Shown here: positions 5,338-22,650 of the stretch, piece after piece
Layout of the letters: every line of letters starts with the position of its first letter
Position numbering within the stretch: the first letter of the stretch is position 1
Made by a program: the position numbers and the translations under genes
DNA from: Alphaproteobacteria bacterium
Lineage (GTDB): Bacteria; Pseudomonadota; Alphaproteobacteria; CAAHEQ01; UBA3637
Direction of reading: 5' to 3'
NCBI GenBank assembly: GCA_045660045.1
Contig: JAZRDB010000014.1
Location: forward strand, 55,571 to 119,570
Length of the DNA: 64,000 bases
Notes under the pieces: generated by a model
The model's input: the letters and a program-made list of their open reading frames with translations, nothing else
The model's database searches: none
What the model was told of the DNA's origin: nothing

Positions 5338-6237
5338 TTATTTCATTAAACTTTTTTCCATCTTGGGCAACAAAACCCCGTGCAAATACGGATTTGCAGC
5401 CAACATCGTATGCGTTTTAATCATGGATGCCAAATCGGTATGGCCTCCAAAATCCGTTACCTTACCACCAGCTTCCTGGATTAACAAATATCCAGCAGCG
5501 ACATCCCACTTGTGAAATTTAAACTCAATTTGGGCATCAATTTGACCTGATGCCACCATGGCCATAGACAAAGCTGCGCTACCAAAATACCGAGCGGAAG
5601 AAAATTCTTCTGCCACATTTTTCAAACCTTTTCTTGTGCGTTCTGCAGAATAACCATTGGTGGCCAACAAACAGCTTCCCAATTTACGCCGCCCCGACAC
5701 ACGTAGGCGCACATTTCCAGCCGGAGTCATTAAGAATGCACCTTTCCCTTTTTCAGCATAATAGAGCTCGTTTGTTACAGGGTTAAAAATAACCCCAATA
5801 ACGACATTTTCTCCCTTCATCAGTGCCAAAGAAATGCAAAACAATGGAATCGCATGAATAAAGTTATTTGTCCCATCAATCGGATCCATGATAAAACAAT
5901 AATCACAACCAGGTGCAGCAGAACGATCACCACATTCTTCGGATAAAAAACCATACTCTGGACGTGCTTCATGCAGCATTTCCATCAATTTCTTTTCAGA
6001 ATACAAATCTGCATTGGACACAAAATCTCCCGGTCCTTTTTCACTGATTTGCAGATTAGAGACTTCACGAAAATCATGAACAATATTTTGACCCACACGA
6101 CGTACCACATTTACCATCACATTCAATGTTGGCGACAAAGCGGCAATCATTTTTTCTTCTCGTGTTTCTGGCCTTTTGGAACGCAAGGTCTTGGTTCTTG
6201 GTGTAATCTTTTGTTTTGCAATCACTGGCATAGCCAT
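5338..6237 (-). CDS. suhB: inositol monophosphatase family protein (SuhB-like)
   Basis: Motifs ...FLSEE..., MDPIDGTNNF and WDVAAG. The true start may be the internal Met at 6150 (MIAALSPTLNVM...), because the first 29 codons are a basic extension with no family signal. Confidence 0.75.
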   Translation of the reverse strand: MAMPVIAKQKITPRTKTLRSKRPETREEKMIAALSPTLNVMVNVVRRVGQNIVHDFREVSNLQISEKGPGDFVSNADLYSEKKLMEMLHEARPEYGFLSEECGDRSAAPGCDYCFIMDPIDGTNNFIHAIPLFCISLALMKGENVVIGVIFNPVTNELYYAEKGKGAFLMTPAGNVRLRVSGRRKLGSCLLATNGYSAERTRKGLKNVAEEFSSARYFGSAALSMAMVASGQIDAQIEFKFHKWDVAAGYLLIQEAGGKVTDFGGHTDLASMIKTHTMLAANPYLHGVLLPKMEKSLMK

Positions 6238-8464: not shown

Positions 8465-9247
8465 TCAAATATTTTTTGCACCACATCTTTCTGCTTCCTG
8501 ACGACGATATTCATAGGCCTGACAAACACCCTTATGATCTCCTTCTGCTGAGTTTTTTGCGGCTTCACATCGCCCTTTCAAAATTTGAGCTTTTTTGATA
8601 ACTGTAGAACAATCGTCACCCTTAGCATTTCCAGTATTTCTTTCCTTTTCACGATCTTTATCGCATTGTTCGGCCTCTTTACGACGATATTCATAGTCCT
8701 TACAAATACCTTTGACATCTCCTTCTGCGGAAGCTTTGGCTTTGTCGCATCTGGCCTTCAATTGAACCATTCTTTGTTTCACTTCAGAACAAGAAAGCCC
8801 CTTAGCATTTCCCGAACACTTACACTGTCCACCGGGTCCTTTCACACACACCTGTCCTTCTACTTTTGGACATGTTTCCCCAACAATTGTTGTAGAAGTA
8901 GCTCCCCCTGAACCGCTACTAGCCGGTCTTGGTCCAGCCAAAGATGTTGTACATTCTGCCGATTTTGCCACAGCACAATAGCTGCTTCCCTCCGCACAAG
9001 CGGCGCCATCATCATATCCTCTTTCAGCAGCTTCTTTTGCTCGTTGCGCTGCATCACACATCCGCTTGGCACACTTGCACTTATTGTACGTAACACTCTG
9101 ATCTTCCGCACACCACCCTTGAGCACTTTGACAGTTCCACGATGCCTTTACACGTAATTCATGATCTGACATATTTTTTGCATCTCCACCAGCAGATACT
9201 TCACAAGCCATACACAACACACCAACCATTAACAAGTATTTAAGCAT
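8465..9247 (-). CDS. secreted cysteine-rich repeat protein (no family recognised)
   Basis: 260 aa. Signal peptide MLKYLLMVGVLCMACEVSA and more than 20 Cys. The C-terminal half is two copies of a ~50-aa 4-Cys module. Confidence 0.7.
   Translation of the reverse strand: MLKYLLMVGVLCMACEVSAGGDAKNMSDHELRVKASWNCQSAQGWCAEDQSVTYNKCKCAKRMCDAAQRAKEAAERGYDDGAACAEGSSYCAVAKSAECTTSLAGPRPASSGSGGATSTTIVGETCPKVEGQVCVKGPGGQCKCSGNAKGLSCSEVKQRMVQLKARCDKAKASAEGDVKGICKDYEYRRKEAEQCDKDREKERNTGNAKGDDCSTVIKKAQILKGRCEAAKNSAEGDHKGVCQAYEYRRQEAERCGAKNI
8483..8812 (-). repeat. intragenic tandem duplication (2 x ~150 nt with a 30-nt linker) encoding the 4-Cys module
   Basis: Copy 1 is aa 146-195, GNAKGLSCSEVKQRMVQLKARCDKAKASAEGDVKGICKDYEYRRKEAEQC (8663-8812). 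Copy 2 is aa 206-255, GNAKGDDCSTVIKKAQILKGRCEAAKNSAEGDHKGVCQAYEYRRQEAERC (8483-8632). Cys spacing is identical in both. Confidence 0.8.
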
Positions 9248-16693: not shown

Positions 16694-17188
16694 CTATCCG
16701 TTTTGCTTACTTTCAGCGGTATAAGAGACCGTCACTTTCTTATCCTCAGGGCTCAATGATTTGCTCTCTTTGGATTTATTTTCTTTATCATCTTTGGCTT
16801 TATAGCCCCGTCCTTTATTGGCCAAATTAGCAAAAATTTCATTGTCCATGCCCTTGCCATTATCAAAAGAATTTTTTTTCTTTTTGTCGGATGCCTTAAC
16901 AATATCCATTAATGTATTATATTCTTCATCCGTATAATCATCCACCAAGTTAACCGCCGTCTTAACACCACGTCCCTGTAATCCTTCAAACAAAATTTTC
17001 GTCCCGTCAAACCCCAAATTAGAATGGTGCAAATGAAGGGATGTTAGCATCTTATTATGACGCAAAGCATCACGCAATGCCTTTGCTCCATCAATGCCGA
17101 TATTCCCATAATCCAGATTTAAAGTGGTCAAAGTTGGATCGTTTTCTTCCAAGCGAATACATAATTCTTGCAATTCTCGTTGTATCAT
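16694..17188 (-). CDS. RNI-type (ribonuclease-inhibitor-like) leucine-rich-repeat protein with a Lys-rich disordered tail
   Basis: Start moved to ATG 17188, which has an AAGGAG SD; the longer start would lie upstream of the likely promoter. Repeats LTTLNLDYGNIGIDGAKALRDALRHNKM / LTSLHLHHSNLGFDGTKILFEGLQ follow the 28-aa LRR_RI pattern. The tail is KKKKNSFDNGKG...KDDKENKSKESK. Confidence 0.65.
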   Translation of the reverse strand: MIQRELQELCIRLEENDPTLTTLNLDYGNIGIDGAKALRDALRHNKMLTSLHLHHSNLGFDGTKILFEGLQGRGVKTAVNLVDDYTDEEYNTLMDIVKASDKKKKNSFDNGKGMDNEIFANLANKGRGYKAKDDKENKSKESKSLSPEDKKVTVSYTAESKQNG

Positions 17189-17267
17189 ACAAACTCCTTC
17201 TTTTAAAGCATTTTTACCAAACAAAAAAACGATTGTCAAATCTTTTTCAAAAAAAATAAAAAAAAGT

Positions 17268-17296: not shown

Positions 17297-17339
17297 TGTG
17301 TTTGATAGGGATTATTCTAACCCAAAAAAGGAGAGACAA

Positions 17340-17924
17340 ATGAAAAAGGCATTAGTTATTTTCGGGGCTTTGGCATTATCGGCCTGTACTATGGGCTACG
17401 AAACGAATATAGATAAAGCGACAGCCAAACGCGAAGCCAATATTGACGCACGTCATCAAGTCAGTGGATGCACCTTTGTGCGTGATCATGACGCTTATAA
17501 AACCTGCTTGATGAACACCTACAACATGAATTCACCGGCAACGTATACAACACAAAATATGCAAGATGGTCGTCCAGTTGCCGTTATCAGCCAGGGCGCC
17601 AAATCGGGCACAAGTGCTTGTGGCTTGAAACCAATTCCAGCGCCAGCTGAATATGAATGGGCCGCTCCGACAACTATTTCACAAACAAATTCTGTGGAAA
17701 CCGTATGCCAAAAGAAATTTGAACCACAACAAACCGTGATTCAAACTGTTGAGGAGACTATTCCTCCGCCAACACCCGAGGTTATTTTTGTACAACCAGA
17801 ACCGGCTCCAGTTGCTCCAGCACCACAACCAGTCCAACAAGTATGGGTAGCCCCTCAACCTGTTGAACCTGTTTGTCCTTGTGCGGATCCCAATGATCCA
17901 TGTCCACAATGCTATGATAAATAA
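17340..17924 (+). CDS. Pro/Gln-rich lipoprotein with C-terminal CPCxDPNDPCxxCYxK motif (paralog 1)
   Basis: ATG 17340 follows an AGGAGAG SD. Lipobox MKKALVIFGALALSAC. Pro-rich segment PPPTPEVIFVQPEPAPVAPAPQPVQQ. The protein ends CPCADPNDPCPQCYDK. Confidence 0.7.
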   Translation: MKKALVIFGALALSACTMGYETNIDKATAKREANIDARHQVSGCTFVRDHDAYKTCLMNTYNMNSPATYTTQNMQDGRPVAVISQGAKSGTSACGLKPIPAPAEYEWAAPTTISQTNSVETVCQKKFEPQQTVIQTVEETIPPPTPEVIFVQPEPAPVAPAPQPVQQVWVAPQPVEPVCPCADPNDPCPQCYDK

Positions 17925-17946
17925 CTTTTAACGAAAGGAAAAAAAC

Positions 17947-18261
17947 ATGAAGAAAGTATTATCCGTTTTAGCTTTAGGTTTATTAGCTGCTGCTTGCGTA
18001 CCACATGACCCAGATGTGGATGACAGCTTTATTCAAACAGATACATATTGGGAACCAGTGAAAGCAGAAGCGCCAGCTCCAAAGCCCGTCTATGTACAAC
18101 CCGCTCCACAACAAGTTCAGGTTCAACCTGTTGTTGTTCAGGCTCAACCACAGCCAACATGGTGGCAACAAAACAAACAAAAGCATGTTGTCAAGGTTGT
18201 AACACCAACATGTCCATGTAAAGATCCAAACGATCCTTGCACACATTGTTATCAAAAATAA
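17947..18261 (+). CDS. Pro/Gln-rich lipoprotein with C-terminal CPCxDPNDPCxxCYxK motif (paralog 2)
   Basis: Lipobox MKKVLSVLALGLLAAAC. Segment APAPKPVYVQPAPQQVQVQPVVVQAQPQP. The protein ends CPCKDPNDPCTHCYQK. Confidence 0.7.
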   Translation: MKKVLSVLALGLLAAACVPHDPDVDDSFIQTDTYWEPVKAEAPAPKPVYVQPAPQQVQVQPVVVQAQPQPTWWQQNKQKHVVKVVTPTCPCKDPNDPCTHCYQK

Positions 18262-18270
18262 GGAGAATAA

Positions 18271-18765
18271 ATGATGAAGAAACTGCTTGTTTTAACAGCT
18301 TCCACATTGTTATTGGCTGCCTGTTCCAGCACACAAGATGGCGCTGAATTGTATGGCGACGTCAATGGGGGATGGCAAGATAACGTTGATGTAACAAATT
18401 TGACAGCGACTGCTTTAACAAAGAAACTGCAAAAAACAGGTGCTGATGTTGTGTATTTCAGTTTCAATGACTCTGGCTTAGATGCCGAAGCAAAGGCAAC
18501 ATTACGTACACAAGCCGAATGGTTAAAAGAAAATCCAAAAGCTTTGATTGTAATCGAAGGCCGTTGCGACGAACGTGGTACACGCGAATACAATTTGGCT
18601 TTGGGGGATCAACGTGCCAATTCTGCGCGCAGTTATTTGATTGCTCAGGGCATTGCAGCTGATCGCATTCGGACCATCTCCTATGGCAAGGATAAGCCCG
18701 TTGTTTTAGGCTCAGATGAAGAAGCTTGGGCTAAAAACAGAAATGCAACAACAGTTGCTTATTAA
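18271..18765 (+). CDS. pal: peptidoglycan-associated lipoprotein Pal
   Basis: Lipobox LLLAAC. OmpA-like domain VYFSFNDSGLDAEAKATLRTQAEWLKENP...IEGRCDERGTREYNLALGDQRANSARSYL. Confidence 0.9.
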   Translation: MMKKLLVLTASTLLLAACSSTQDGAELYGDVNGGWQDNVDVTNLTATALTKKLQKTGADVVYFSFNDSGLDAEAKATLRTQAEWLKENPKALIVIEGRCDERGTREYNLALGDQRANSARSYLIAQGIAADRIRTISYGKDKPVVLGSDEEAWAKNRNATTVAY

Positions 18766-18785
18766 AAAATACTTGTAAAGTTTTT

Positions 18786-18820
18786 ACCTTCCTTGTATAA
18801 TGCAAGGAAGGTTTTTATTT
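18786..18820 (+). terminator. rho-independent terminator/attenuator between pal and cpoB
   Basis: 10-bp stem ACCTTCCTTG (18786-18795) / CAAGGAAGGT (18803-18812) with a 7-nt loop, followed by TTTTTATTT. Confidence 0.7.
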
Positions 18821-18833
18821 GAAAGGGAGAAAT

Positions 18834-19562
18834 ATGAAAAAATATTTGCTTTTATCTATAGCTCTTTTTATAACACCATTGATGGCTCAAGATTTAATTG
18901 TTGAAGAAATCCCGTTGGAAGCCCCTGCTTCCACAGAAAAAATCGCTACACCAATCGATACAAAAATGGCTCCTATTTCTCATGGCGATGGGACATTAGA
19001 TGACCTATACACTTTGGTGGAAGAACATAAAAAAGCCGTGCGTGATTTAACTGAACGTTTAGAGCAAACTGAATTTAAATTGAAACAAACAGAAGAAAAA
19101 TTGGAACGCACCACACAAGATTTGGCTTTTCGTGTGGCAGAATTGGAACAAAAGCCTGCCATCATTATTGATAAAACATCCGATAAAGACCGTTATGAAT
19201 ATGCATATGGCCTTTTACAAAAAAATGATTATAAAAGCGCCGAAGAACAATTTTTAAGTTTCATTAAGGATTTTGAAAAATCTGATTTAAAACCAAATGC
19301 TATTTATTGGTTGGGTGAAACGTACTATGTGCAACAGCAATTTGAGAAAGCTGTTGGCCAATTTGCTGACGTTTTCACAAATTATCCCAAATCCAACAAA
19401 GCCGCAGACGCCCTATTAAAAATGGGACTTTCAATGGTTTCTTTGAAAAAAATTCCAGAAGCTTGCACTGCCTTTATTGCTTTACCAAACGAATTTCCCA
19501 AAGCTGATGAAAAATTGAAACAACGCGCCAAAGAAGAGGCACAAAAGAACAAATGTTCGTAA
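18834..19562 (+). CDS. cpoB: cell division coordinator CpoB (YbgF), TPR protein
   Basis: ATG 18834 follows a GGGAGA SD. Signal peptide, coiled-coil region, then a TPR region ...AIYWLGETYYVQQQFEKAVGQFADVFTNYPKSNKAADALLKMG. Sits at the canonical position after pal. Confidence 0.8.
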   Translation: MKKYLLLSIALFITPLMAQDLIVEEIPLEAPASTEKIATPIDTKMAPISHGDGTLDDLYTLVEEHKKAVRDLTERLEQTEFKLKQTEEKLERTTQDLAFRVAELEQKPAIIIDKTSDKDRYEYAYGLLQKNDYKSAEEQFLSFIKDFEKSDLKPNAIYWLGETYYVQQQFEKAVGQFADVFTNYPKSNKAADALLKMGLSMVSLKKIPEACTAFIALPNEFPKADEKLKQRAKEEAQKNKCS

Positions 19563-20785
19563 TTCCACATAATATTCTTACTTTTTTAAATCAACTTCCT
19601 CTTTCAAAAGGCCCCATTATTGTGGGTGTTTCTGGCGGAGCAGACAGCCTTTATTTAACTTATTTATTAAATGTCTGGTGTAAAAAAAATAAACGAACCC
19701 TTTTTGCCGTAACGGTTAACCATGGATTAAGACCAGAAGCTGAAACAGAGGCCAATTGGGTACACAAGCAACTGAATCTAAAAAAAATTGATCATGCCAT
19801 TTTAACGTGGAACGGGCCCAAACCCAAAACGCATATTGAAGAGCGTGCCCGCAAAAAAAGGTATGAACTTTTGCTAGATTTTTGCCGCCAACATAAAGCT
19901 GCAGCCCTGTTTTTAGCCCATCATCAACAAGATCAATCTGAAACTTTTTGGACGCGTTTAGCACACAGCAGCGGGCTGGATGGCCTTGGCTGTATGGCGC
20001 AAGTTTCAAAACGCGGCGATATAATGATTATTCGCCCTCTTTTGAAAATGCCTAAGACAGAAATCGTGCAAGCTATGAGGAAAAACCACTTAAAATGGGT
20101 CGAAGACCCCATGAATCAAGATTGCACCTATGAACGCGTCGGGTGGCGTAAGAAACAATCAGAACTAGATAAAATGGGACTGAACGCCAAAGTAATTGAA
20201 AAGACAACAGATCGCCTGCAACGCGCCAAAAATGCCCTTAATTTTTACACGGAACAATTCTTGAAGATGCATCTAAAAAAATCTCCGCTTGGCTTTGTAC
20301 AAATGGACGAAAACACATTCACCAACTTGCCTGAGGAAATTCGTATCCGTGTGGTTATTCAAATTTTAAAGATGTTTAATAATTCGGATAAAATTATTCC
20401 TTTAGAAAGCGCGGAAAACATTGCCTTACAAAGGCCTAAACACGCCACATTATCGGGGTGTCAATGGGTGATCAGCCATCATCAAATTTTTGTAGCACCC
20501 GAATTAAAAAATCTTGTTAAACGCCTGATTGAAGCAAATCAATGGACTAGCTGGGGATCGGCACAGGTATGGACAAACAAAGCCTTTATGGCCGAGGCAA
20601 AAGCACCAACACCACGTCTTAAAAACATTCCCTATCTTGTTCAACGGACGTTCTTAACCGTACCCAAAGAATATAAAACCCAAGTTTACAGTGAAAAAGA
20701 ACTTGAAAAAAAAGTAAAATTGGACTATAAAAACAAGGCACCAATCGTGATTTTAAAAACAAAAAACACAAAGGAGAAAGCATGA
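19553..20785 (+). CDS. tilS: tRNA(Ile)-lysidine synthase
   Basis: PP-loop [10 protein letters not shown], followed by ...VNHGLRPEA... and ...[11 protein letters not shown].... Shows the alphaproteobacterial cpoB-tilS-ftsH order. Confidence 0.85.
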
Positions 20786-22650
20786 ACAAACCAAAAGGAT
20801 TAGGCAGCAGTTTATTGATATGGGTGGCTTTATTTGCCGCCGTTTTTGCTATCTCCCAATTCACTTATTCGCCAGAAGAATTGAAAAAGACGGATGACAT
20901 TCCCTACTCTGAATTCGTTGAAAAAGTAAAAGGTGGTGACGTATATGCCGTCAAAATGCAAGGGCAAGAGGTATTTGGCACTCGCAAAGACGCCTCAAAA
21001 TTCAAGACATATGTTCCAAACAATGCCCAAATTGTTGAATTGTTAGAAAAGAACAAAGTGACCATCAGCGCCGAGCCAGAAGACACATCAGAGGGGTGGT
21101 TTAGCGCTTTGGTCGGTTGGTTGCCGATGTTGTTCTTTTTATTCTTCTGGATCATCATGATGCGCCAAATGGCCGCCAGCAATGGCAAAGCCTTGAGTTT
21201 TGGCAAATCCAAAGCACGGCTTTTGACAGGAAAAGATAGTGTTACTTTTAAAGACGTTGCCGGCATTGAAGAAGCAAAACAAGAGCTTCAAGAGATTGTG
21301 GAATTTTTAAAAGCTCCAATGAAGTTCCAACGCTTGGGCGGTAAAATCCCCAAAGGCGTGTTGTTGGTTGGCCCTCCAGGAACTGGTAAAACATTGCTTG
21401 CCAAGGCAATTGCAGGAGAAGCGGGCGTGCCATTTTACTCTATTTCCGGCTCAGATTTCGTAGAAATGTTCGTGGGCGTAGGTGCATCACGTGTTCGCGA
21501 TATGTTTGAACAAGCCAAAAAAACATGCCCTTGTATCGTGTTTATGGACGAAATTGATGCGGTTGGCCGTCATCGTGGCGCAGGCTTGGGTGGCGGTAAT
21601 GACGAACGCGAACAAACATTGAACCAATTGTTGGTGGAGATGGATGGTTTTGAAACGAATAGCGGTATCATCTTGATGGCCGCCACAAACCGTCCGGATG
21701 TGTTGGATCCCGCCCTTTTGCGCCCTGGTCGTTTTGACCGTCAAGTGGTTGTGAATAACCCTGATGTCAAGGGTCGTGAAGATATTTTAAAGGTCCATGT
21801 GCGCAAAGTACCGTTGGCACCCAATGTCCGCCTTGATATCTTGGCACGCGGCACGCCGGGCTTTTCTGGCGCAGATTTGGCTAATTTAGTGAATGAAGCC
21901 GCCTTGCTGGCCGCCCGTCGCAATAAAACGATGGTTACTATGGGCGATTTTGAAGATGCAAAAGATAAAGTTATGATGGGTACAGAACGCCGTAGCTTGA
22001 TTATGGACGAAAAGGAAAAGCGCATGACCGCCTATCATGAAGCGGGACATGCGATCGTGTCGCTGCATCTACCCGAATCAGATCCGTTGCACAAAGTGAC
22101 GATTATTCCACGCGGACGTGCTTTGGGCGTCACAATGCAATTACCCGAAAAGGATAAATATTCACAAAGCAAAACCTATTTGCAAAGCCGTTTGTCTATT
22201 TTGTTCGCCGGTCGTGTGGCGGAAGAAATGATTTTAGGCAAAGAGAAAGTATCCACAGGAGCCAGCAATGACATCCAAGTGGCCACCACTATCGCACGCC
22301 GTATGGTGACTGAATGGGGCATGAGTCCGCTGGGCCCAATTGCCTTTGAAGAACCCGAAAGTGACGTGTTCTTGGGTTACAGTATCGCCAAACGTAAAAA
22401 CATGGCCGATAATACCGCTTTACAGGTGGATAAAGCCATCAGCACGTTGGTCCAAAATGCCTATCGCCGTACGCAAAACATCTTGCGCCAATATAAAAAG
22501 GAATTAGATATCTTGGCCAAAGGATTGATTGAATATGAAACTTTGTCTGGTGACGAGGTACATGACCTTTTAAAAGGTAAAAAAATTCGCGAGGACGAAA
22601 AGAAAATATCTTTAAAGAAACCTCGTCCAACGGTCCCAGACGTGAAATAA
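20782..22650 (+). CDS. ftsH: ATP-dependent zinc metalloprotease FtsH
   Basis: Walker A GPPGTGKT, second region of homology, and zinc site HEAGHA. ATGA overlap with tilS. Confidence 0.95.

Follow-up and report, generated by a model that had tools for sequence, protein, structure and literature searches.

The question raised by this locus is what two small lipoprotein genes are doing directly in front of pal, which encodes the peptidoglycan-associated lipoprotein. The locus lies in a 64,000-nt stretch of DNA, hereafter the window (contig JAZRDB010000014.1, positions 55,571 to 119,570 of the forward strand), from the genome of an uncultured alphaproteobacterium. The two genes stand in tandem and encode a long and a short protein with a shared C-terminus, CPCxDPNDPCxxCYxK, referred to here as the knot. 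Both proteins belong to an undescribed lipoprotein family which is near-universal in, and specific to, a single order of Alphaproteobacteria, uncultured and living in gut and rumen. We use the label X for this family of lipoproteins interposed between tolB and pal, which, judging from gene order among the relatives, is its ancestral position. We know of no model organism for which a gene in that place has been described, and literature text searches also found none.

A lipoprotein family specific to one order

Neither window protein had a significant match in Pfam, where a single chance-level match to HMG_CoA_synt_N (E = 0.23) was returned, and neither had any match in NCBIfam. The OmpA_C-like domain PF00691, found in pal next door with an E value of 3.6e-22, was missing from both X proteins at E ≤ 1. 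A Pfam scan of 104 homologues gave no consistent family, sequence profiles made from both alignments gave no PDB matches at E ≤ 10, and a Foldseek search of the predicted structure against the PDB gave no match below E = 1, the best (E = 1.3) being meaningless. A full-text literature search for 'DPNDPC' found no papers. The view, first taken from the letters of the two genes, that the motif comes from no described family is thus upheld across Pfam, NCBIfam, PDB sequences, Foldseek and full text.

Such relatives as were found are nameless. A word-indexed search with the short protein retrieved 34 unnamed relatives and a second search of this type 158 homologues, all either without a name or called 'hypothetical protein', and when 1.84 billion representative proteins were searched with a profile, 50 clusters only were obtained. 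A scan of one genome per species gave 17 loci, all titled as metagenome-assembled genomes of uncultured Alphaproteobacteria except L016 (Lactobacillales), with goat abomasum, rumen, sheep rectum, roe-deer caecum and buffalo caecum as named sources. Five of these loci hold a tandem pair and the other 12 a single gene of about 175–235 aa, which combines a lipobox, the N-terminal domain (N-domain) of the long copy, a variable spacer, the motif TWWxxYQxNKP and the knot.

The order comprises one family of 16 genera with genomes of 0.7–2.0 Mb, and was surveyed in 80 species genomes. A profile of the knot type matched 63 of them and none of 397 genomes sampled from other families of the class. Three genomes outside the window's genus with two matches each (G008, G018 and G044) contain single open reading frames (ORFs) matched in two pieces, and a further one (G019) looks frameshifted near the tail and is not a tandem.

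Conservation of the C-terminal tail

BLASTP of the long against the short protein gave one alignment, covering the last 20 residues with 70% identity (E = 4e-8, pairwise). The pattern CxCx6CxxCxxK was found at the very C-terminus of 139 out of 139 knot-bearing sequences, namely 35 of the short type and 104 of the long or ancestral type, so that the four cysteines on which the original prediction dwelt are conserved throughout these sequences, well beyond what chance would give. In the 104 sequences the invariant knot residues are C179, P180, C181, P184, N185, P187, C188, C191 and K194. Across all 139, V, Y or F stands at position -3 and mainly D, E or Q at position -2.

The two 48-nt knot DNAs of the window differ in 10 of their 16 codons, six of these 10 synonymously. 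When 24 knots were compared, each invariant Pro was found with every one of its four codons and each invariant Cys with either of its two, and the 16 knot codons showed 1395 synonymous versus 711 non-synonymous codon differences, against 402 and 3547, respectively, in the 16 codons upstream of the knot. Because synonymous codons are scrambled while the residues stay invariant, it is the knot peptide, not the DNA, that is preserved by purifying selection, and these codon counts bear out the peptide-level selection proposed earlier for the shared 16 residues. A motif pattern search of the rest of the genome left the window pair as the sole copies, with no third knot in the 0.91-Mb, 89%-complete assembly. 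Three metagenome proteins (P0073, P0077 and P0083) carry a knot and TWW tail on unrelated N-termini (SDR-like, AbiEi-like), and are probably products of chimeric contigs or truncated gene calls.

A second type of tail, ...E(K/V)xLPxE(E/D)K-COOH, which contains no Cys, is found in six genera. By hhalign, the N-domains of this variant and of X are homologous (probability 97.4%, E 1.4e-11). This LPxEEK type occurs in 15 of the 80 genomes, which belong precisely to the genera without a knot, apart from one case of overlap, so that the two types combined account for 77/80 genomes of the order; in a tree of Pal the LPxEEK group forms one clade (99/100). A terminal Lys was present in all 144 sequences examined (104/104 long, 35/35 short and 5/5 LPxEEK-type). 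It is the most conserved feature and the only tail feature common to both tail types, and since six genera combine this N-domain with the LPxE(E/D)K tail, which is free of Cys, it is the terminal Lys that makes an order-wide tail feature. This invariant residue, which outlasts the Cys motif, had been overlooked in the original prediction.

Position in the tol-pal cluster

In distant relatives X is found between tolB and pal within the arrangement ybgC-tolQRAB-X-pal-cpoB-tilS-ftsH, with a knot in L012 and L014–L019. The lipoprotein still occupies this place in genera without a knot match, in the LPxEEK form (L031, L032 and L034); in L033 the variant gene adjoins pal, with no tolB within the stretch fetched. 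The order of genes in the window's own genome is broken. There, ruvA-ruvB-ybgC-tolQ-tolR-tolA-tolB is intact on contig C12 (5864–11201), with no pal after tolB, and the break, which lies between tolB and X, is common to the window's genus. At least six different neighbours were found upstream of X in this genus (an LRR protein, i.e. one with leucine-rich repeats, a DnaJ-like protein, a kinase-like ORF, pilin-like genes, a 252-aa Cys-rich protein and a 226-aa ORF), with pal always as the next gene. Pal follows X in every locus that reaches past X (21 loci and the window), with a small ORF between the two in L019.

The two genes had been placed in the slot where tolB usually sits, a point on which the original prediction has to be corrected, as tolB is intact together with tolQRA on another contig and the ancestral slot of X runs from tolB to pal. 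The search for tolQRAB elsewhere in the genome had a clear outcome on contig C12, and a replacement of tolB by X is ruled out because of it. About 2 kb downstream of tolB, contig C12 also carries a tandem pair of paralogues, 351 and 319 aa in length (C12:13094-15242; DLVYLWCDGSDPNF...).

Domain architecture and predicted structure

An AlphaFold2 run with 18 sequences gave a poor model (pLDDT, the predicted local distance difference test score, of 56.9), and a second run with 104 sequences reached 68.8. The latter model consists of a signal helix, helices at residues 24-42 and 50-64 and a hairpin at 69-73/79-83. The predicted N-domain block has a pLDDT of 66-88, with C44 and C56 flanking the second helix, and its residues R31, G43, C44, C56, T60, P66 and G77 are invariant in the 104 sequences. 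Beyond residue 84 the model shows no regular structure and the spacer has no helix. In the long copy of the window the spacer is rich in Pro, Val, Gln and Ala (P18 V12 Q11 A10 of 94 residues), holds two extra cysteines, C100 and C137, and retains a single-Trp remnant, QVW, of the TWW motif; among homologues both its length and its sequence vary widely.

The TWW motif is found in 115 of 139 sequences overall and in 80/104 long or ancestral copies, and in the ancestral single genes TWWxxYQxNKP immediately precedes the knot. The short type has as invariant residues, in 34 homologues, L13, A16, C17, H20, W72, W73, H80, K83 and the entire knot.

Duplication in the genus of the window

True tandems were found only in the window's genus, in 6 of 21 genomes, the window's own included, and their distribution on the Pal tree would fit one origin (a single change; support 64/89). 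The short copy retains the mature start CVPHDPD (compare CVAHDTD in L012), the TWW motif and the knot and has no N-domain, while the long copy retains the N-domain and the knot, with TWW down to one Trp. On this sequence comparison the window pair are paralogues, and the short copy is an internally deleted duplicate; what followed the duplication looks like a partitioning of modules. The original prediction of tandem paralogues stands in this respect, but homology extends beyond the shared 16-residue tail, with the short copy also keeping a CVxHDxD start of the mature protein and TWW. In L011, the knot of a single-copy gene (6130-6177) is a mosaic, its CTHC being typical of short copies and its YDK of long ones, which suggests that a short copy may have been lost secondarily via recombination between tandem knots.

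Gene layout around pal

The coordinates of the features are given in Table 1. The original prediction had read this part of the DNA accurately, including the two lipobox signal peptides LALSAC and LLAAAC, the coordinates and sequences, the Pro/Gln/Val-rich segments and the spacers of 22 nt between the long and short genes and 9 nt between the short gene and pal. The long protein begins MKKALVIFGALALSAC, its orthologues starting with an identical MKKAL, and its Cys16 is kept in at least 90% of the 104 homologues. The short protein begins MKKVLSVLALGLLAAAC, with its lipobox followed by the mature N-terminus mentioned above. Each gene has its own Shine-Dalgarno sequence: GGAGAG at 17330-17335 for the long gene, AAAGGA at 17934-17939 for the short gene, and for pal an AGGAG that runs into the short gene's own stop codon.

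A scan of the + strand found no terminator in the gaps that separate the long gene, the short gene and pal, up to a hairpin between pal and cpoB. Downstream of 17340 no other terminator-like site on the + strand is as strong as this one, with its 12 bp; the scan otherwise gave a weak 5-bp site at 18118 (18118-18130, in the short gene) and another at 18613, both inside coding sequences. We propose that the two X genes and pal may form one transcription unit, and the layout is compatible with the co-expression with pal suggested earlier, in view of the separate Shine-Dalgarno sequences, the short gaps and the lack of an intervening terminator. The cpoB-tilS-ftsH segment is the conserved downstream portion of the alphaproteobacterial tol-pal cluster.

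Table 1 Features of the X-pal locus (positions in the window)
Feature	Position	Strand	Details
Long paralogue of X (194 aa)	17340..17924	+	ATG 17340, TAA 17924; ORF and sequence
Signal peptide with lipobox LALSAC, long copy	17340..17387	+	Cys16 predicted lipidation site, Thr at +2
Small N-terminal domain, residues 17-85, long copy	17388..17594	+	AlphaFold2 (predicted) and conservation
Pro/Val/Gln/Ala/Thr/Glu-rich spacer, residues 86-178, long copy	17595..17873	+	Composition
C-terminal knot CPCADPNDPCPQCYDK-COOH, long copy	17874..17921	+	Invariant positions in 104 sequences
Short paralogue of X (104 aa)	17947..18261	+	ATG 17947, TAA 18261; without N-domain
TWW motif and basic strand TWWQQNKQKHVVKVVTPT, residues 71-88, short copy	18157..18210	+	In 35/35 short copies
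C-terminal knot CPCKDPNDPCTHCYQK-COOH, short copy	18211..18258	+	Invariant in short-type homologues
pal (peptidoglycan-associated lipoprotein)	18271..18765	+	TIGR02802 138 bits (cut-off 125); PF00691 OmpA E 3.6e-22
Intrinsic-terminator-like hairpin	18786-18812 (also given as 18786..18822)	+	12-bp stem and T-run; between pal and cpoB
cpoB/ybgF	18834..19562	+	TIGR02795 117 bits (cut-off 90)
tilS	19553-20785	+	After cpoB
ftsH	20782-22650	+	After tilS

A promoter-like sequence, TTGTAA-17-TATAAT (18773-18801), overlaps the terminator-like hairpin between pal and cpoB. Divergently upstream of the pair, on the - strand, lies a gene for a leucine-rich-repeat protein (16694-17239) without a signal peptide and with a weak match to PF13516 (E 8e-4); L003 and L007 have this gene in the same location, unlike the other relatives.

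Disulfides or a metal site

The mature long protein has eight cysteines and the mature short protein four. Among predicted exported proteins the ratio of even to odd Cys counts is 34:20, versus 273:320 among cytoplasmic proteins (Fisher p = 0.02), and each of the nine predicted exported proteins that contain 12-106 Cys has an even number of them. The genome also encodes a DsbA-like protein with a signal peptide and a CPHC sequence. The original prediction had offered a metal knuckle or a disulfide-locked plug. Because of this even-Cys bias and because a Cys-free tail can replace the knot, we favour two disulfides, which would make a rigid head of the knot, over a metal site. A site in which the four cysteines would bind Zn, Cu or another metal in the non-oxidising periplasm of an anaerobe, as a knuckle, sensor or chaperone, has in our estimation a slim chance. 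It would account for four invariant cysteines, it agrees with the absence of DsbB and VKOR from all 80 genomes of the order, and the organisms are probably anaerobic given their gut and rumen hosts. The even-Cys bias, however, speaks for disulfide formation in this organism; a tail free of Cys occupies the same slot in six genera, so that metal cannot be the core function of the family; and the spacing CxC-x6-CxxC is not, to our knowledge, a classical zinc-ribbon or knuckle pattern.

Cys-rich secreted proteins are encoded, for example, at C6:18737-21655, at C7:7371-9977 and at 8465-9247 of the window. The order apparently secretes proteins rich in disulfides with neither DsbB nor VKOR, only DsbA-like thioredoxin-fold proteins having been found, and how DsbA is re-oxidised in such an order is a side question raised by this work.

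Proposed role of X

We propose tentatively, and with somewhat less than even confidence, that X serves the Pal module as an adaptor or as a tether of non-covalent kind. The window pair are paralogous lipoproteins, putatively of outer-membrane type, and their family is a near-universal, order-specific part of the tol-pal gene cluster. In this proposal, X would be lipid-anchored in the outer membrane at Cys+1, and the long unstructured Pro/Gln/Val-rich spacer would carry a small, rigid head out into the periplasm. This head would consist of the four invariant cysteines (CxC-x6-CxxC), most likely in two disulfides, and end in [VYF]-[DEQ]-Lys-COOH. Together with the preceding TWW it would dock non-covalently on the Pal/peptidoglycan layer, the putative partner being Pal, peptidoglycan or TolB. 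X may thereby add non-covalent links from the outer membrane to the wall, or adapt Pal, in a clade without Lpp and mostly without L,D-transpeptidases. Upon duplication of the ancestral gene its modules would have been split, the long copy receiving anchor, N-domain, spacer and head and the short copy anchor, spacer, TWW and head. As for the machinery of lipoproteins and wall, LolA is present in the window's genome, and LspA was not found in its 89%-complete assembly and is present in 15/20 congeners, including the other tandem-bearing genomes. Three penicillin-binding proteins (PBPs) are encoded, one of which is a class A-sized match (794 aa).

Several observations weigh against the proposal. 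The placement in the outer membrane, as opposed to the inner membrane or the surface, is taken solely from the +2 rule of E. coli, which may not be valid for this clade. The structural model is only moderately confident, at a mean pLDDT of 68.8 and with the knot blocks at 59-78, and the pathway that would oxidise the head is incomplete by known parts. Tight coupling with pal is not universal either, the gap from X to pal being 300-575 nt in the L014-L019 group; the small ORF between X and pal in L019 (6190-6555) is a 121-aa ankyrin-repeat-like insertion (GETPLHLA...KNGAN).

A role as a regulator instead of a tether is unlikely, if worth keeping in mind. Here the TWW...head segment would be a TolB- or TolA-binding epitope that competes with Pal, or X would be an Lpo-like 'fishing line' through the pores of peptidoglycan which activates the single class A PBP together with CpoB. 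Colicins carry Trp-containing TolB boxes, which TWW may resemble, and LpoB and LpoP combine a lipid anchor, a long disordered linker and a small head, an architecture comparable to that of X; the gene has tolB and pal as its exact flanks and cpoB downstream, the genome offers one match of class A PBP size, and the Trp-rich motif is widely kept. However, X has no homology to LpoA, LpoB, LpoP or any TolB or TolA ligand, the long copy of the window has lost TWW yet stays conserved, and when the cluster broke X remained with pal, not with tolB. LpoA, LpoB and LpoP do resemble X as lipoproteins of the outer membrane that are limited to certain clades and cross the periplasm with a long disordered linker, and in E. 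coli the Lpo proteins are functionally linked to CpoB and TolA; X differs in having its folded domain beside the anchor and only a 16-residue head at the far end, and no Lpo-type activator domain was found for X by Pfam/NCBIfam, PDB sequence or fold match. The chance that X is a host-facing surface lipoprotein, acting as an adhesin or binding host proteins via its C-terminal Lys, with an accidental adjacency to pal, is slight indeed: surface proteins typically have Pro-rich, fast-evolving stretches like the spacer, and the organism is host-associated, with LRR and ankyrin-like genes nearby, whereas a near-universal single-copy core gene in a fixed housekeeping slot with invariant termini is unlike variable surface antigens, and no surface-export signal is known for the clade.

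Covalent attachment in the manner of Lpp, by which the epsilon-amine of the C-terminal Lys would be cross-linked to the stem peptide of peptidoglycan and the Pro-rich spacer would replace the coiled coil, is decidedly unlikely. The invariance of the terminal Lys as the one tail feature that both types share speaks for it, as does the antepenultimate Tyr of the window proteins (CYDK, CYQK), which recalls the ...YRK of E. coli Lpp. In Lpp and OutB, L,D-transpeptidases need no more and no less than one Lys at the C-terminus for attachment (PMC12274547), Salmonella LppB, which is redox-active, is a precedent for a Cys next to the terminal Lys (-RICK; 10.1101/2025.11.13.688167), and Lpp itself is confined to some Gammaproteobacteria (10.1101/2021.05.31.446380). 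With Lpp and the Lpp-box proteins (E. coli Lpp, Dickeya OutB and Salmonella LppB), X thus has in common a small size, a lipobox, a C-terminal Lys with an aromatic or hydrophobic residue at -3, an envelope-tethering context and, as in LppB, a Cys near this Lys. In contrast, X has no homology to Lpp, which is gammaproteobacterial, and its spacer is disordered and variable: neither the window proteins nor the 104 homologues matched LPP (PF04728), and no coiled coil is predicted. YkuD domains (PF03734), the only known catalysts, gave no match in a hidden Markov model search of the window's 89%-complete assembly, where a scan for the active-site motif was also negative, and they are absent from 68/80 genomes of the order, including all six that bear the tandem, and present in 12/80, whereas X or its variant is found in nearly all. 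The known chemistry of covalent attachment is therefore unavailable to most of the order, and a YkuD-mediated, Lpp-like attachment is poorly supported. It is very unlikely, in turn, that X is an alphaproteobacterial counterpart of Lpp whose Lys is joined to peptidoglycan by a non-YkuD enzyme (a PBP or a novel transpeptidase), with the knot or LPxEEK tail as recognition box; if true, this would be a second, independently evolved covalent tether between outer membrane and wall, within the tol-pal operon. The idea that the C-terminal [DE]-K mimics the gamma-D-Glu-mDAP (meso-diaminopimelate) end of a stem peptide, to which Pal might bind, was dropped by reasoning, as a C-terminal Lys has no free D-centre like that of mDAP.

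Among known envelope proteins, Pal and the accessory products of ybgC and cpoB/ybgF share with X the same cluster and a conserved synteny, and Pal is likewise a lipoprotein with a flexible linker; X differs from Pal in having no OmpA-like domain and in being limited to one order. The only analogue found in the literature on Tol-Pal and Alphaproteobacteria is DalA (RSP_1200), a divisome-associated outer-membrane lipoprotein of Rhodobacterales which co-precipitates with Pal and peptidoglycan enzymes (PMC10470522). From its description, DalA resembles X as a lineage-restricted alphaproteobacterial outer-membrane lipoprotein that fills the gap left by missing Lpp and Lpo proteins (PMC10470522). 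It differs in that dalA lies far from pal (RSP_0668) and outside the tol-pal cluster, and in that it works with L,D-transpeptidases.

Significance

What appears to be new here, as undescribed in the resources searched, is the family, the knot and the position in the tol-pal cluster, while a clade-specific envelope lipoprotein that accompanies Pal is a familiar theme. The split into one copy with the N-domain and without full TWW and another with TWW and without the N-domain offers a ready-made dissection of the modules. The Tol-Pal cluster ranks among the best-conserved envelope modules in Gram-negative bacteria. Its gene content (ybgC, tolQRAB, pal and cpoB) has been deemed settled, and yet a whole order keeps an extra, unrelated lipoprotein in it. 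Since this order, with genomes of 0.9-2 Mb, has no Lpp and mostly does without the L,D-transpeptidases used by other Alphaproteobacteria, X is a good candidate for its missing tether or adaptor, and may help to tie the outer membrane to the cell wall.

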